A stretch of DNA of 64,000 nt from a phage. Below are positions 25,164 to 42,193 of the stretch, piece by piece. The notes under the pieces are model-generated. The model searched no databases. It was given only the letters and a program-made list of their open reading frames with translations, and had not been told where the DNA came from. The stretch lies in the sequence record PZ445439.1; one strand, given 5' to 3'. Position 1 is the first letter of the stretch. Each line of letters opens with the position of its first letter. Both the position numbers and the translations under genes were made by a program.

Positions 25164-25168
25164 ATTGA

Positions 25169-25192
25169 GGGAGCCTTCGGGTTCCCTTTTTC
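25169..25192 (+). terminator. intrinsic terminator after gene 35 (GGGAGCC-UUCG-GGUUCCC then U tract)
   Basis: stem-loop with UUCG loop followed by TTTTTCTTT. Confidence 0.55.
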
Positions 25193-37987: not shown

Positions 37988-38545
37988 TTAAATGGAAAGA
38001 TACCATCCGTTGTAGTTACTTTTTCTTACAACCTTACGAAGGTCTTCTCTATCACCAATGAACTTCGGAGTGTACTGGATGACACCTGGATGAATTTCTT
38101 TAGTGTTGAATATAATTATACAGTCTGCGACCTGATGATTCAGAATGGGCCCTAGATTTATTCCAGAACCGTATGGATACTCTCCACTGCATCCTGTTGT
38201 TACCGAAATCCAACGAGAGTCAGTTTGATGTGTTTTGACTTCTACTCGAAGCCCGCAGTATTTTGGATGTGCCAAAACATCCCATGCATATGTATACGGG
38301 TCATCGACATCTTCTTGACCTTTGTTAACATATCCACTTAACCAATCTGCTACAACATACTCGGCATACACTGCGATACGGCATCTTTCGATAACTTCTG
38401 CCTTATCCTGATTTGGATTTTGCTTTAAAGAATATCTCGCAGTATCAGCAATTTTGACCTTCATTTCACTAGTCAAGTCACCGTTCGATAGGGTAAATGT
38501 CGGAATCTGAAATAGTCTCTGTAACCCCGGATTCGTTTTCTGCAT
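37988..38545 (-). CDS. denB: endonuclease IV-like protein (denB position)
   Basis: 185 aa, size and position between ndd and rIIB as T4 denB; sequence not verified from memory. Confidence 0.6.
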   Translation of the reverse strand: MQKTNPGLQRLFQIPTFTLSNGDLTSEMKVKIADTARYSLKQNPNQDKAEVIERCRIAVYAEYVVADWLSGYVNKGQEDVDDPYTYAWDVLAHPKYCGLRVEVKTHQTDSRWISVTTGCSGEYPYGSGINLGPILNHQVADCIIIFNTKEIHPGVIQYTPKFIGDREDLRKVVRKSNYNGWYLSI

Positions 38546-38807
38546 TTAGACTTTCCTTTTTACCACTAAGATAAGCGTTATACACTTTAAGAGTACCATA
38601 GTAAATTCGATCATTTTCATCTAAAGAATTATGATCAAGTTCATCGAGTTCCTTTTTATCCATGACTATAACATCATTACAGTAAAGAAACCCAAGTTTT
38701 TCGTGACCAAACTCAAATTTATTGCAGTACACAATGTTAGCGTGATGATTTCCGTGTAGTTTAATCTCTTTTATGTCGGAATCACCGATATTCATACAAT
38801 AAATCAT
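38478..38807 (-). CDS. hypothetical protein, 109 aa (3' end overlaps denB-like ORF by about 68 nt)
   Basis: track ORF, ATG start; unusually long overlap lowers confidence. Confidence 0.35.
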   Translation of the reverse strand: MIYCMNIGDSDIKEIKLHGNHHANIVYCNKFEFGHEKLGFLYCNDVIVMDKKELDELDHNSLDENDRIYYGTLKVYNAYLSGKKESLNAENESGVTETISDSDIYPIER

Positions 38808-38820
38808 AATTCACCTTAAA

Positions 38821-38840
38821 ACAAAAGGGCCGAAGCCCTT
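38821..38840 (-). terminator. intrinsic terminator (AAGGGC-UUCG-GCCCUU then UUUUGUUUU)
   Basis: hairpin and U tract immediately after stop of ORF 38839..39033. Confidence 0.5.
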
Positions 38841-38854
38841 ATTTAAATTGTTCA
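38825..38854. repeat. direct repeat copy A (about 30 bp: hairpin plus ..EQFK-encoding 3' end)
   Basis: AAGGGCCGAAGCCCTTATTTAAATTGTTCA, same sequence as 39051..39080. Confidence 0.6.
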
Positions 38855-39033
38855 ATTCTTTTCTCTAGACATTCAGCATAAGATTTCATTGAGATAAACT
38901 GTGAAAGCAGTAATTCTTGTTCAACTTCATTAACCGTTAGAAACTTCGTGCTTTCTAAAAATTTGCCCAGTGCATTAATTTTGAGCATTAATTGTTCGTA
39001 TTCTTCTTTTACTCGTGCTTGATAACCTAGCAT
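38839..39033 (-). CDS. hypothetical protein, 64 aa, between denB-like gene and rIIB
   Basis: track ORF, ATG start with AAGGA site; C-terminus ..EQFK shared with rIIB through the direct repeat. Confidence 0.45.
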   Translation of the reverse strand: MLGYQARVKEEYEQLMLKINALGKFLESTKFLTVNEVEQELLLSQFISMKSYAECLEKRIEQFK

Positions 39034-39050
39034 AATTTTCCTTAGTATGA

Positions 39051-39080
39051 TAAGGGCCGAAGCCCTTATTTAAATTGTTC
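39051..39080. repeat. direct repeat copy B (3' end of rIIB plus hairpin)
   Basis: same about 30 bp as 38825..38854. Confidence 0.6.
39052..39067 (-). terminator. hairpin after rIIB (AAGGGC-UUCG-GCCCUU) without a clear U tract
   Basis: same hairpin as copy A but followed by AUCAUAC, so termination is probably weak. Confidence 0.4.
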
Positions 39081-40004
39081 AGTAACGTCTTCAACTACTT
39101 CGTATTGGCAGGTACGCATTTTAGCATCGTTGTAATCAATCGGAATTGATACTACATCACGAGGATGTACTTTAACTTTTACAACTCGACTGGTTGAACT
39201 ACCGAAGTGACGAATATAAGATTTAGAACACACATGCAGACCGCGAGAACAAGTTTGTGTATCATCATCATTCACACGAGTACGTGGCATTTTAACTACT
39301 TTACCCGGACTGTTATCAAAGGTATTTGAGTGACAGTCAAAGTAATTGCTGCGAACTACTTTCCAAGCATAGAAGTAACCATCTTCTGTAATTTCAATAT
39401 CGTTTGCTACCAAGAAATCAAAGAGTCGAGATACCGCTTTTTGGCTCGGGTTTTCTAACAGATTTTCCAAGAACGGAAAATAGAATTCAAAGTTTTCGCC
39501 TTTTTCCATCGAATCAAGAATACGATCAACCAAACCAGACCGCAATTCAATATTTTGATAGAACAAGCTTCCACCTTCAATTCGAACATCACCGGAAATA
39601 TATTTTTCAACGGCGCGACGAACATTAATTTTTTGTGCTGCTTCTTCCAACTTATCAGCTACGAGCAGATTAAGAATTTCCTGGAAGTTTGAATGAGTGT
39701 TAGGAGTTGCGTTATAAGTTACACCATCAACAGTAATTGAAATGAATTTTTTAGAAGCATTCCAAATGATGTCAGATTTAGCAACTGGAGCAATAGCTAC
39801 ATCGCTATTAACTTTAACTGTAATGTCACCGCTAATAGTAACTTTAGAGCGTTCAGCTTCTTCAGCATTTTTTAAAACACGACGGATTGTGTCAACCGAT
39901 ACACCCTTCCAATCAGCCAGTTCCTGCTGAGTATAATTACCACTTGAATACAGTTTAACGATTTCAGCTTGTTCGTTTTTGGTCAGGCATTTAATATTGT
40001 ACAT
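39066..40004 (-). CDS. rIIB: RIIB
   Basis: 312 aa, size and position as T4 rIIB, directly downstream of rIIA. Confidence 0.85.
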   Translation of the reverse strand: MYNIKCLTKNEQAEIVKLYSSGNYTQQELADWKGVSVDTIRRVLKNAEEAERSKVTISGDITVKVNSDVAIAPVAKSDIIWNASKKFISITVDGVTYNATPNTHSNFQEILNLLVADKLEEAAQKINVRRAVEKYISGDVRIEGGSLFYQNIELRSGLVDRILDSMEKGENFEFYFPFLENLLENPSQKAVSRLFDFLVANDIEITEDGYFYAWKVVRSNYFDCHSNTFDNSPGKVVKMPRTRVNDDDTQTCSRGLHVCSKSYIRHFGSSTSRVVKVKVHPRDVVSIPIDYNDAKMRTCQYEVVEDVTEQFK

Positions 40005-40015
40005 AATTTTCCTTA

Positions 40016-42193
40016 TTAGGCCGCAAGGGCCTTCATAGTTTTAGCGATTTGGGAAACTTCATCATCACTTAAAGAGTTGCGATATCCGATGAAGTCGGAA
40101 ACAATACGGAATTTCTTGGTAAACTCAGCAACCATTTTATCACTGTTTTTTGAAGCATTATATGATAATTTATCAAAAAGATTAGTTACTGTCCAGATGT
40201 CATGACCGATGGTATCTTTTCCACCGTTGAAATATACACCCTGTAATGAACTAACCATATTAGCGAGTCGTGTATATTTTTCAGAAACTTCATCTGTACT
40301 GAAGTACTTCATCATAAAATCTAACTCAGGATACTTGATGATTTTATCAATATATCGTTTAGCTGAACTTGAATAACCTACGTACTCATCATAATCTACA
40401 TCATCAAAAGCATCTACATATAAATCACGCACAGTTTCAAAAATACATTGGCACTGACCAAGTTCTTTTACCTTTTTCTGTAAAAGCGGACGAATAACAT
40501 AAAATTCATTAATGCCAATAAGATTAGCCATACGAATCAAAATATTCATAGATGGATTACAAAGAGATGTAGTACCATCCATAGAGAAAATATCAGAACG
40601 ATGCATATACGCTACATAACCAGTAATTTCATCTGCTTCTGACGTAAGCGTAAATAGTTCTTCTTTTTCCCAACGCCCATCTTTAATTTCAAACTTAAAT
40701 GCTGTAGCAGCTTTAGGACGAGGAGCTTTACTTTTAACTGCCTTCGGAATATAGCTTTTAACTAAAGCTTCAATTTCTGACAAATAATGAATGTTAACTT
40801 CATCACTTTCAAACATCGCCATAATATCAGGAAGTAAATCAATTTGTGATTCTACTTCCGGGTTAATAAACAGAAGACGCTCATTATGATGAATATTTAA
40901 AGTGTTATTAAATTCACTATCATCTAACGCATGTGCTAATCCACGGACAATATTAACACGATTTTTAATATCATCAATAACGATATTAATTTTTGTTGTA
41001 TTAATACCGAACAGACGATAGCTTGATGCAACTGCTGAAGTTTCATGGCTTTGCTTAATGCGTTTCAGTCGAGGGTCAAGATTTACTTCATACACAACCC
41101 CTGCATTACATAACTTACTATCAGGTTCAAACATGCTCTGCATCTTCTTATATGACAGATTTTTAGTCGTGAATTTGACTGAATTACTAATCATATAATC
41201 TCGAGCAGAATACCCCATCTTCATCAATTCACGATATGTGTGACGAGGAGATGTAGATTCTTTAAATCGTTTTACATCTTCATTAAATGCTTGCTCACTG
41301 AGTTCTTTAACTCGTTCAATAATATTTTTACGGGTACGATCATCAAGTGAAAGAGCTTCGCGAGATGGAGCAATATCAAGTGAACCCATTGGAAACTTAA
41401 TGTAATTCACTTCATTACGAATGCTTAGCCAGTTACGCTCTCTAATAACACCATCAATAGGATAAACAATACCGCCATAGATGGCATACAATCCGCCACG
41501 ATCAGGCCAGTATCTTTCTGGATTTACGCCGTAATAATCATCAAAATCCGGAAAATAATCAATTTCACGGTCAAGACCATTGATGATAGCCAAATCTTTG
41601 AACGGCCGCATGATATAAGAAACTTCATAAGCAAAGTTTCTAAAGTCTTTTTCTTCAACTGGAACTACGATTTCAATACCAGTTTTATCATCTGGACCCA
41701 TTTCTTTTACGAATGTAGGTTTAATTTGTGGACCATCACCATCCATATAAGCTACATAACCACGAATTTCGCCTTTATGATACGAAGTAATACTAAACGT
41801 ATCAGTATAACTAAATGGAGATTTAGAACCTAAACCAAATCCGCCAATGAAATCGTTGGATTCGGCTTTAGATGAACTGAAGTATGAATTATACAGACCA
41901 GGAGAATTATCATCACCCTGAATATCAAAATCGCTCATGCCCGGACCAAAGTCTCGGCAAACAAATCGCGGATCTAATCGTCCAGGAACTTGTATGATAA
42001 ATTTTTCAGGATTTCCATTGAGTGCATGAGCATCAATCATGTTAGTAATTAATTCACGGACTACTGCGCGAATCTTGTTTGTATACAAATCAGACGACAG
42101 AATTTTAAATACTTTAGGAGATGCTGTGATGCTAAATGCTTTTGATTTAGAACCATTACCCAGAATTGTTTCTTTTTCAGTGGTGATAATCAT
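40016..42193 (-). CDS. rIIA: RIIA
   Basis: 725 aa, ATPase-like N-terminal region, size as T4 rIIA. Confidence 0.9.

Follow-up and report, generated by a model that had tools for sequence, protein, structure and literature searches.

Organization of the rIIB-denB region

The window, the whole 64-kb stretch of DNA that was analyzed, belongs to a Tequatrovirus (T4-like). On its minus strand the genes rIIA, rIIB, denB.1, an ORF of the DUF7418 family and denB follow one another in this order (Table 1), and the rIIB label is carried by the matching gene in T4, JoYop and other annotated records. The sequence-only reading had placed a 64-aa ORF between rIIB and a denB-like gene. It does adjoin rIIB, but its downstream neighbor is the DUF7418 ORF, and denB lies one gene further. 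The DUF7418 ORF is partly deleted in T4, where a 37-codon remnant is left, and its end is overlapped by the T4-style start of denB. The two intergenic spaces flanking denB.1 are 31-32 nt each and share the arrangement stop-hairpin-SD-ATG. The sequence AAGGAAAAUUAUG has two exact copies in the 64 kb, only at the denB.1 and rIIB starts, and the RegA site published for rIIB (PMC3014915) overlaps this region.

Table 1. Coordinates of features between the starts of rIIB and the end of denB in the window.
Feature	Position	Strand	Basis
rIIB, 312 aa, C-terminal end ..VTEQFK-UAA	39066..40004	-	ORF list; phrog_609 RIIB lysis inhibitor, E 6.9e-111
3'-end repeat copy of rIIB (last base of a Thr codon; E-Q-F-K 39069-39080; stop 39066-39068; hairpin AAGGGC-UUCG-GCCCUU 39052-39067, stem can grow to 8 bp, 39050-39069)	39052..39081	-	sequence repeat
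Translation-initiation region of denB.1, AAGGAAAAUUAUG	39031..39043	-	same letters at rIIB start, 40002-40014
denB.1, 64 aa	38839..39033	-	T4 NP_049888 'ORF64'; Pfam PF21825 crAss001_48-related
3'-end repeat copy of denB.1 (E-Q-F-K 38842-38853; stop 38839-38841; hairpin 38825-38840)	38825..38854	-	sequence repeat; compared with unconverted alleles
U tract UUGUUUU after the denB.1 hairpin, continuing two stem U; directly followed by SD AAGGUG (38812-38817) and the ATG of the next ORF (38805-38807)	38818..38824	-	terminator scan
DUF7418 ORF, 109 aa, RB32ORF268c / RB69ORF272c family	38478..38807	-	PF24193, E 5.1e-37; phrog_2237
denB (endonuclease IV), 185 aa with T4-style start	37988..38545	-	phrog_1360, E 4e-97; annotations of relatives

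A perfect 30-nt repeat at the ends of rIIB and denB.1

The window contains two exact copies of the 30-mer AAGGGCCGAAGCCCTTATTTAAATTGTTCA, and no more, in direct orientation. A repeat of about 30 bp had been claimed from the sequence; both copies are exact, but the second one lies at 39052-39081 rather than 39051-39080. None of 100 dinucleotide-preserving shuffles contained any match to the 30-mer at three or fewer mismatches. Six independent GenBank genomes with the same allele rule out an assembly artefact as the source of the perfect repeat, and the module is present at most twice per genome in every match listed. On the transcribed (minus) strand both copies read ..GAA CAA UUU AAA UAA GGGCUUCGGCCCUU. 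Reading the strand bears out that each copy supplies E-Q-F-K, the stop codon and a C(UUCG)G hairpin to its own gene, with the stop codon overlapped by the 5' arm of the hairpin. The U tract, UUUUGUUUU, lies behind the denB.1-side copy only, and a terminator scan of the minus strand agrees with this earlier observation, picking up the denB.1-side copy alone of the two.

Both hairpins have a C:G-closed UUCG loop on a Watson-Crick stem. Their fold energies in 61-nt contexts are unremarkable compared with shuffles (z = -1.0 and -1.9). The stems are also short. Given the weak z-scores, covariation rather than energy was used as evidence for structure. A count of other C(UUCG)G hairpins gave 12 in the window, with the same stem only in these two. 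An Rfam covariance-model scan of 38300-39500 assigned no family and returned two sub-threshold snoRNA chance matches.

Identity and distribution of denB.1

The 64-aa ORF is denB.1 (T4 NP_049888; 'ORF64' of GenBank D16359), a T-even accessory gene annotated earlier, which bore the old T4 label 'Uncharacterized 7.5 kDa protein in denB-rIIB intergenic region'. Its product has the length of T4 DenB.1 (64 aa) and 89% identity to it, and the gene has the same place after rIIB, directly 3' of it and upstream of denB. It differs from T4 denB.1 in the Glu at residue 61 (Ala in T4), in its rIIB-identical tail and in its intact 109-aa DUF7418 neighbor. DenB.1 matches Pfam PF21825 above the gathering threshold across the full domain (68.8 bits vs the 24.8-bit cutoff, E 3.8e-19; residues 4-61 aligned to profile positions 3-60 of 61) and is also placed in phrog_774. 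A PDB sequence search with DenB.1 gave only a chance IF1 match (E 0.67). The name 'denB.1' was found in the literature searched solely in one unrelated genome paper, and the CRISPRi-ART and HIDEN-SEQ texts mention neither the gene nor its terminator.

Matches to DenB.1 were found by tblastn in 652 phage records. The survey that follows is drawn from GenBank records; an IMG/VR scan with denB.1 as anchor gave just 4 loci. The gene follows rIIB in at least six Tevenvirinae genera, with the order rIIB-denB.1-DUF7418-denB in Dhakavirus, Gaprivervirus, Winklervirus, Yersinia phage P8 and Klebsiella phage kv_tblp8; in Kanagawavirus Q7622 the record ends after rIIB-denB.1. It is missing in Mosigvirus (RB69), where the layout is rIIB-hairpin-U tract-SD-DUF7418 ORF. 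DenB.1 divergence roughly parallels that of rIIB. The native C-terminus of DenB.1 is RI-x-x-F in all genera compared, and its 'QF' was therefore not supplied by rIIB.

These comparisons bear on the proposal of the sequence-only reading that recombination at the 3' end of rIIB had inserted or duplicated the ORF. The two repeat copies do appear to be related by copying within the genome, but the ORF is an old, known gene and has no duplicate. A recent insertion is contradicted by denB.1 after rIIB in Dhakavirus, Gaprivervirus, Kanagawavirus, Winklervirus and the Klebsiella T4-like phage, none of which has a matching downstream repeat. Nor is the repeat arrangement general: perfect identity is a minority state, and most Tequatroviruses, T4 included, have diverged copies. 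The comparison across T-even phages and the homology search, which returned a conserved known gene in a widespread arrangement, thus largely refute the original interpretation, and insertion or duplication of the ORF at this site appears weakly supported. The Mosigvirus layout may be counted as one point in favor of a role for the repeats in insertion or deletion.

A form of this idea modeled on the PeSL cassettes discussed below is that denB.1 is a mobile single-gene cassette, with the hairpin modules left as a footprint of integration through recombination at the hairpin behind rIIB, or of an unequal crossover of a denB.1-bearing with a denB.1-less genome, and with excision as a mini-circle when the two modules recombine. 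Mosigvirus RB69 with ~150 relatives and many Klebsiella T4-likes are indeed without denB.1. The RB69 layout is the exact product expected of recombination between the two Tequatrovirus copies, and the hairpin-UUUUGUUUUAAGGUGAAUUAUGAUU of denB.1 resembles the hairpin-UUUUUUCUUUAGGGGUAAUUAUGAUU of RB69 rIIB. In RB49 and phi1, mini-circles arise by excision of ORFs that lie between repeated stem-loop cassettes, and homology of <50 bp suffices for recombination in T4 (PMC2839356). However, at least six genera have denB.1 in this position, five of them without a flanking repeat, and a divergence that roughly tracks rIIB indicates an old vertical residence with loss in Mosigvirus. The indel in those genera is an exact ATG-to-ATG loss or gain for which hairpin repeats are unnecessary. 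Among the matches listed, the module is confined to these two sites per genome, and the repeat is just 13-20 nt long in most Tequatroviruses. When a synthetic denB.1-deleted junction was used as query, the best 25 matches were all split into two pieces ~450 nt apart; these 25 therefore retain denB.1, and no Tequatrovirus deletion junction is among them. We therefore consider a mobile cassette unlikely.

A more speculative extension, which we would give a slim chance, is that the stop codon and hairpin form a portable, promoter-less '3'-end cassette' for slotting in or excising single accessory genes while termination is kept. The Mosigvirus layout would then be the empty site, and periodic homogenization of the copies, of the kind proposed for the window, would keep denB.1 excisable.

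The hairpin after rIIB is ancient

The rIIB-side hairpin was found in every genus sampled, and its stems vary among relatives (GGGC, GGGGC, GGAGGC, GGGGAC, GGAGAC). All 13 sequences compared keep the C:G closing pair, and all except GiZh (UUUG) and T6 (UCCG) have the UUCG loop. In this set of 13 short, hand-centred sequences from related phages, four of the six pairs show changes on both sides, 93.6% of cells are paired, and the covariation is 0.487 vs 0.252 in shuffles, with none of 500 shuffles reaching the observed value. As a control, sliding the partners made the signal collapse. The rIIB-side hairpin is an RNA structure whose conservation and covariation mark it as ancient and selectively maintained, and it is probably the ancestral copy of the pair. 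To our knowledge, a conserved covarying hairpin at this site has had no earlier report.

Its role is probably that of an RNA-stabilizing or processing structure. A U tract follows the hairpin in RB69, kv_tblp8 and Winklervirus; none follows it in Tequatrovirus, Dhakavirus, Gaprivervirus and Kanagawavirus. The tail in the window, AUCAUACU, does not complete an intrinsic terminator, and the lack of a U tract argues that the Tequatrovirus rIIB-side hairpin is not an efficient one. The hairpin is weakened in T4 itself, and the viable phage FL12 has lost it by deletion; it is thus dispensable in at least one viable phage.

The hairpin after denB.1 is a predicted terminator

Among the genera compared, a hairpin with the same stem follows denB.1 only in Tequatrovirus. 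The gene abuts the next ORF, with no hairpin between them, in Dhakavirus, Gaprivervirus, Kanagawavirus and kv_tblp8, and an unrelated hairpin, GGCC-UUCA-GGCC, stands behind it in Winklervirus. The Tequatrovirus denB.1-side stem equals the rIIB-side stem of the same genus and is unlike those of other genera. This restriction suggests that the denB.1-side hairpin is very probably a local copy from the rIIB side.

Alternatively, the two CUUCGG hairpins could have separate origins, their likeness arising from selection for one highly stable structure and from a QFK ending reached by chance. T-even genomes contain many such hairpins (12 in the window; for the class see PMC4371310), and the 'QF' of DenB.1 is native rather than copied. 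Yet every other hairpin in the window differs in its stem, an identity of 30/30 is absent from shuffles, and even diverged alleles have ~19-20 nt in common (AATAAGGGCTTCGGCCCTT). The denB.1-side stem, moreover, fits the rIIB side of its own genus rather than that of others. Separate origins are hence very improbable, and we regard this explanation as close to refuted.

The denB.1-side hairpin at 38825-38840, a G+C stem-loop followed by UUGUUUU, has the makeup of an intrinsic terminator. Together with UUUUGUUUU it is probably the terminator of an rIIB-denB.1 unit, as predicted from its sequence. In the G2133 and GiZh records, independent annotators using ARNold/MFOLD likewise put terminators at the denB.1-side copy only. 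With no U tract at the rIIB-side hairpin and terminators annotated only at the denB.1 side, the natural inference, already drawn in the sequence-only reading, is that rIIB transcripts would read through into denB.1. No mapping of T4 transcript 3' ends and no T4 Term-seq data were found in the literature searched.

An allele series at the denB.1 3' end

The majority allele, that of T4 included, reads gca caa ttc aaR TAA aataa-GGGC. It ends in A-Q-F-K, uses TTC and has a 5-nt insert; T4, RB14, T6, teqskov and others carry such unconverted alleles. ECML-363 has gca caa ttt aaa TAA GGGC, and the window, JoYop, G2133 and Sf23 have gaa caa ttt aaa TAA GGGC. Where the window departs from T4 at the end of denB.1, its last codons, stop codon and spacer match its own rIIB. 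The perfect-repeat allele was found in 6 distinct deposited phages among ~496 Tequatrovirus-level denB.1 records. It is spread over at least three denB.1 backgrounds, each with unconverted nearest relatives. At the E/A position outgroup DenB.1 proteins have Ala, Gln or Ser, never Glu, indicating that the Glu is derived; it is the same residue as in rIIB. The best explanation of this pattern is that the denB.1 tail and hairpin were overwritten by the near-identical rIIB tail, through ectopic gene conversion or templated mutation. The ECML-363 allele would then represent a shorter conversion tract.

The opposite polarity, in which the perfect repeat is ancestral, is also worth weighing. The duplication would at first have given two equal copies, which the window, JoYop, Sf23 and G2133 kept, and the majority allele would have diverged through two substitutions plus slippage that duplicated 5 nt. 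The majority insert looks like a tandem AAATA duplication right behind the stop codon, and AAATA-AAATA-A could be a slippage product of an insert-less ancestor. If so, ECML-363 would be near-ancestral, a possible intermediate, and would differ from the window allele by a single substitution. Insert-less alleles always come with TTT, as shared ancestry would also give. T-even genomes are mosaic, and three backgrounds are therefore no proof of recurrent conversion. On the other hand, the allele is present in just 6 of ~496 records, scattered over at least three backgrounds with unconverted closest relatives; insert-bearing alleles are diverse (AATAA, AATAAA, ATAA, AAGA), which suggests that they are older; and the outgroups never have Glu. 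We consider an ancestral perfect repeat unlikely.

Discussion

Our preferred account combines a known gene, denB.1, with an old rIIB hairpin, a Tequatrovirus-specific copy of it serving as terminator, and a tail conversion in the window. The Tequatrovirus rIIB hairpin would terminate inefficiently, and rIIB transcripts would continue into denB.1. In the Tequatrovirus lineage, the hairpin, together with the neighboring K codon and stop, may have been copied behind denB.1, with microhomology provided by the native ..RIAQF of DenB.1 and the ..TEQF of rIIB. With UUUUGUUUU, this copy would end the rIIB-denB.1 unit, and some read-through would feed the DUF7418 ORF and denB. The two copies would later have drifted apart in most Tequatroviruses. 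The rIIB end, 227 bp upstream, would then have overwritten the denB.1 end in the window and in six deposited phages, by short-tract ectopic gene conversion or templated (strand-switch) mutation. A single event of this kind could erase three differences (GCA to GAA, TTC to TTT, and loss of AATAA) and produce the perfect 30-nt repeat. We consider this account as a whole probable.

In T4, mutations templated by imperfect repeats have been described (Schultz et al., 2006, as reviewed in PMC3016281). As in that system (Schultz, Carver and Drake, 2006, via PMC3016281), clustered changes here make an imperfect repeat match its neighbor; unlike it, our case is read from natural alleles and was not seen as a mutational event. 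Homologous recombination between co-infecting phages could spread the converted allele.

The gene, the hairpin class and the terminator were all known already, and the findings have little reach beyond T-even annotation. What is added is the rIIB hairpin as a conserved, covarying RNA structure across Tevenvirinae genera. The perfect repeat is a rare allele, and probably a clear case from nature in which nearby regulatory elements were homogenized by short-tract conversion or templated mutation. The locus is also a small illustration of moving operon boundaries in hyperplastic regions of phage genomes, and it opens no new question.

The arrangement recalls the PeSL (promoter-early stem-loop) cassettes of T4-type phages (Arbiol et al., 2010, PMC2839356; Comeau et al., 2014, PMC4122927), in which a stem-loop is closely followed by a sigma-70-like early promoter (TTTACW-N17-TAYWAT in T4/PST) and then by SD and ATG (PMC4122927). 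The portable 3'-end cassette considered above would be their promoter-less counterpart. Repeated intergenic stem-loops likewise surround a small accessory ORF here, in the variable region near ndd/denB; the ORF is present or absent between genera, and recombination of the flanking copies would delete it. Unlike PeSLs, the locus has no early promoter, its repeat enters coding sequence, and there are only two copies per genome. Membership is ruled out by the 31-32 nt spaces, which are too short to house a promoter, and by the lack of any conserved one. A promoter scan gave 13 matches vs 10.4 expected from shuffles. A weak promoter-like TTTAAA-16-TATCAT (9/12) spanning the rIIB-side hairpin is a chance match, since its spacer differs in T4, G2133 and Sf23.

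The denB.1-side G+C stem-loop followed by UUUUGUUUU resembles intrinsic (Rho-independent) terminators, and prediction tools mark it as one in the records of other phages. The Tequatrovirus rIIB-side copy departs from them in having no U tract, whereas its orthologues in RB69, kv_tblp8 and Winklervirus have one. Both hairpins share the UUCG loop, C:G closing pair, short G+C stem and intercistronic position of the 'extraordinarily stable' C(UUCG)G tetraloop hairpins of T4 mRNA (Tuerk et al., 1988, described in PMC4371310). Unlike that class in general, the two are identical copies reaching into coding sequence, and the rIIB-side one is conserved across genera with covariation.

Identity of the 64-aa ORF

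The 64-aa ORF is denB.1. The locus segment matches hundreds of Tequatrovirus genomes (best, Escherichia phage JoYop, 97.8%; most others, 90-95%), and reference T4 carries denB.1 (195 nt) between rIIB and denB. The protein of the window is 89% identical to T4 DenB.1, and other records call the gene 'ORF64' or 'Uncharacterized 7.5 kDa protein in denB-rIIB intergenic region'. A homology search placed it as a full-length member of PF21825 (crAss001_48-related; 68.8 bits against a 24.8-bit cutoff) and in phrog_774; no relative in the PDB was recognisable by sequence. By tblastn, 652 phage records carry a DenB.1 match; among them are other Tevenvirinae genera and, as distant matches, crAss-like phages. 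Its 109-aa neighbour is a DUF7418 ORF, and therefore denB.1 is not adjacent to denB, contrary to the sequence-only reading.

Genes of the locus in the window
Feature	Position	Strand	Source
rIIA	40016..42193	-	ORF listing
rIIB	39066..40004	-	ORF listing
64-aa ORF (denB.1)	38839..39033	-	ORF listing
109-aa ORF (DUF7418)	38478..38807	-	ORF listing; PF24193, phrog_2237
denB	37988..38545	-	ORF listing

A shared 3' end of rIIB and denB.1

A repeat finder and a reading of 38500-39400 revealed a perfect 30-nt direct repeat, AAGGGCCGAAGCCCTTATTTAAATTGTTCA, at 38825-38854 and 39052-39081. Two copies had been reported earlier, the first at this position and the second one base off. The 64-kb window holds no further match even when 3 mismatches are allowed, and 0 of 100 dinucleotide-preserving shuffles gave a match. 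The RNA of either copy reads GAA CAA UUU AAA UAA-GGGCUUCGGCCCUU, encoding E-Q-F-K and a stop codon overlapped by the 5' arm of a C(UUCG)G hairpin; as proposed, one copy supplies these elements to rIIB and the other to denB.1. The denB.1-side copy is followed by UUGUUUU and was reported by a terminator scan. The rIIB-side copy is followed by AUCAUACUAAGG and was absent from the scan on the transcribed strand, bearing out the earlier view that only the former has a U tract. Both hairpins are centroid structures in 61-nt contexts, in which their fold energies are unexceptional against shuffles (z = -1.0 and -1.9).

Counting stems of 4 bp or more, the window contains 12 C(UUCG)G hairpins, of which only the rIIB-side and denB.1-side pair share a stem. 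The module occurs at most twice per genome among the matches listed. Convergence of the two hairpins is effectively excluded by the shuffle result and by the lack of any other window hairpin with a shared stem. Other C(UUCG)G sites lie, for example, at 587-566, 16196-16179, 25167-25188, 44349-44332, 54866-54845 and 61120-61101; several of the 12 are followed by U tracts, which is typical for T-even genomes.

Variation across Tequatrovirus

Both junctions were compared across the window, 4 IMG/VR contigs and 12 different GenBank Tequatroviruses, with T4 represented by two records. In this set the rIIB end hardly varies from gaa caa ttt aaa TAA gggcttcggccc. The hairpin is weakened in T4, where one stem G is missing; the loop is UUUG in GiZh and one IMG/VR contig and UCCG in T6. 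In Escherichia phage FL12 the hairpin is wholly lost (TAA-GGAAAAUUAUG) by a deletion between two TAAGG repeats, so this conserved element is dispensable for viability. The denB.1 end is variable in the same set, and in T4 the repeat finder gives a 13-nt repeat only.

Forms of the denB.1 3' end
Genomes	3' end	C-terminus
Most genomes	gca caa ttc aaa TAA aataa-gggcttcggccc-ttttgtttt	AQFK
T4	aag TAA aataaa-ggg	AQFK
T6	TAA ataa-ggg	AQFK
ECML-363	gca caa ttt aaa TAA gggc	AQFK
Window, JoYop, G2133, Sf23	gaa caa ttt aaa TAA gggc	EQFK; same as rIIB end

A 36-nt diagnostic megablast query, which matches only the fully rIIB-like denB.1 junction, recovered 7 records from 6 phages (JoYop, G2133, Sf23, Sa45lw, ESh29 and KMB42), compared with about 496 records for denB.1 at the Tequatrovirus level. 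This converted end is found on at least three differing denB.1 sequence backgrounds. Unconverted ends are carried by the nearest relatives both of G2133 (T6 and an IMG/VR contig) and of Sf23 (310Ecol104PP and teqskov).

The T4 records NC_000866 and D16359 differ by one C in the denB.1-side hairpin (gggcttcggcc versus gggcttcggccc), and in both the rIIB-side stem is one G short relative to other Tequatroviruses. Strain variation may account for this, or else compression during sequencing of so stable a hairpin.

Comparison with other Tevenvirinae genera

Comparison of the rIIB-denB region across T-even genera revealed that denB.1 is a known gene in the same slot in several of them. The order rIIB-denB.1-DUF7418-denB is present in Dhakavirus (PSD9, Bp7, ABTNLS3), Gaprivervirus (RZ), Yersinia phage P8, Klebsiella phage kv_tblp8 and Winklervirus (Virsaitis27); in Kanagawavirus (Q7622) only rIIB-denB.1 is visible, as the record stops just past denB.1. 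All have a C(UUCG)G hairpin 3' of rIIB, with differing stems (GGGGC/GCCCC, GGAGGC/GCCUCC, GGGGAC/GUCCCC, GGAGAC/GUCUCC). In an alignment of the rIIB-side hairpin (n = 13), 93.6% of cells pair and 4 of the 6 pairs have changed on both sides; covariation is 0.487 versus 0.252 in shuffles (0/500 reach 0.487), and sliding the partners abolishes the signal. The hairpin is thus conserved and covarying, an old and selected RNA structure. A U tract follows it in kv_tblp8, Winklervirus and RB69, and is absent in Tequatrovirus, Dhakavirus, Gaprivervirus and Kanagawavirus.

In Dhakavirus, Gaprivervirus, Kanagawavirus and kv_tblp8 the ORF after denB.1 adjoins or overlaps it and there is no hairpin; the hairpin at this end in Winklervirus (GGCC-UUCA-GGCC) is unrelated. 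The denB.1-side hairpin has its stem and flanks in common only with the rIIB-side hairpin of its own genus. DenB.1 ends in RIAQFK in Tequatrovirus and in RIARF, RIQRF, RISYFGE or RISNFDF elsewhere, so 'A..F' is native and only the K, stop and hairpin appear imported. The E four residues from the end is a derived state and matches the residue of rIIB.

RB69 (Mosigvirus) lacks denB.1; between its rIIB and the DUF7418 ORF lies UAAUAAUU-GGGGACUUCGGUCCCC-UUUUUUCUUUAGGGGUAAUUAUG (1776-1816 of the RB69 locus, L026). This junction is common to about 150 Mosigvirus-type records (95-100% identical), and some 140 records of Klebsiella phages align to it with roughly 70% identity. With denB.1 missing from about 150 Mosigvirus and about 137 Klebsiella-phage records, where the rIIB hairpin has a full U tract and the DUF7418 ORF comes directly after, denB.1 varies in presence between Tevenvirinae genera. 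Over the last 140 residues, rIIB of RB69 and Kanagawavirus is 83% identical to that of the window, Winklervirus 64% and others 75-77%; DenB.1 identities fall in much the same order, from 56% to 42%, and those of DUF7418 are mosaic. Read most simply, this makes denB.1 a long-term resident of the slot after rIIB that was lost in Mosigvirus.

The sequence-only reading favored insertion or duplication by recombination. Insertion of denB.1 as a cassette, analogous to the mini-circles of PeSLs (promoter-early stem-loop cassettes), is favored to some extent by the Mosigvirus 'empty site' and by a similar hairpin-U tract-SD unit before the DUF7418 ORF in Tequatrovirus and Mosigvirus. However, five other genera carry denB.1 in the same slot without flanking repeats, and a search with a synthetic junction gave no hairpin-precise deletion in its best Tequatrovirus matches. 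PeSLs by definition have an early promoter after the stem-loop (PMC4122927), for which the 31-32-nt spaces flanking denB.1 are too small.

Proposed origin and function of the two hairpins

We propose that in the Tequatrovirus ancestor the hairpin, K codon and stop were copied onto the end of denB.1, a step that microhomology at the Q-F codons, CAATT(C/T), would have aided. In the window, the perfect identity over 30 nt would reflect a secondary homogenisation of the denB.1 end, since three separate differences vanish toward the rIIB sequence 227 bp away and ECML-363 has a shorter tract. The opposite polarity, with the perfect repeat ancestral and the majority allele derived, would fit the resemblance of the 5-nt insert to a slippage duplication, but is disfavored by the rarity of the allele, its scattered distribution and the contrary outgroup residue. 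Homogenisation of this kind is known from T4 as 'templated' mutation, in which a strand switches to an imperfect repeat (Schultz et al., 2006, as summarised in PMC3016281); T4 also recombines on patches <50 bp (PMC2839356).

The denB.1-side copy and its U tract form a predicted terminator of the rIIB-denB.1 unit, and annotators' tools independently placed terminators at this copy only. RNA polymerase would pass the rIIB-side hairpin, which probably acts as an RNA-stability or processing element. The U tract is indeed absent there, and the read-through of rIIB transcripts into denB.1 suggested earlier is a prediction from it; a literature search found no experimental transcript-end data for the region, so our statements on termination and read-through are predictions.

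The denB.1 gene (ORF64/denB.1), the predicted denB.1-side terminator (annotated in several GenBank records) and the mutational mechanism are already known, and the C(UUCG)G hairpin class was first described from T4 mRNA (PMC4371310). We found no earlier description of the cross-genus covariation, the denB.1 terminator as a local copy of the rIIB-side hairpin, or the rare homogenised allele. Such additions are small and of a familiar kind. The locus as a whole is an ordinary T-even genome feature with a neat evolutionary footnote; the original observation is confirmed and its interpretation partly supported.

Start signals and neighbouring ORFs

A 13-nt translation-initiation sequence, AAGGAAAAUUAUG, is identical at the denB.1 (39031-39043) and rIIB (40002-40014) starts, both on the minus strand, its sole exact copies in 64 kb. 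It contains AAAAUUAUG.., the published RegA operator of rIIB (PMC3014915), suggesting that denB.1 may be RegA-repressed. denB.1 has both start and stop signals in common with rIIB. The rIIA 3' end has a hairpin (AGGCC-CUUGC-GGCCU; 40018-40032, minus strand) that overlaps the last codons and is followed by UAAUAAGGAAAAUUAUG of rIIB. The rIIA/rIIB, rIIB/denB.1 and denB.1/DUF7418 junctions thus share a 'hairpin at stop codon, then SD-ATG' arrangement.

The 185-aa denB frame of the T4 annotation has 68 nt in common with the end of the DUF7418 ORF, which is read in a different frame (38478-38545, minus strand), and other records give a 158-aa denB starting downstream of that ORF, leaving the true DenB start ambiguous. 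The DUF7418 ORF is intact in the window; T4 has a 37-codon in-frame remnant (ORF37 of D16359; 2162-2243 in the NC_000866 locus, L001, and 29-142 in the D16359 locus, L009). Teqskov and Hafnia phage IsaacDaniel have a deletion different from that of T4, so loss of the gene has occurred repeatedly. DUF7418 proteins of Dhakavirus, the Klebsiella phage, Winklervirus and Mosigvirus form one cluster (59-69% identity), and those of Tequatrovirus and of Gaprivervirus are each distinct (35-46%). This clustering is discordant with rIIB, which suggests horizontal exchange of the DUF7418 ORF.
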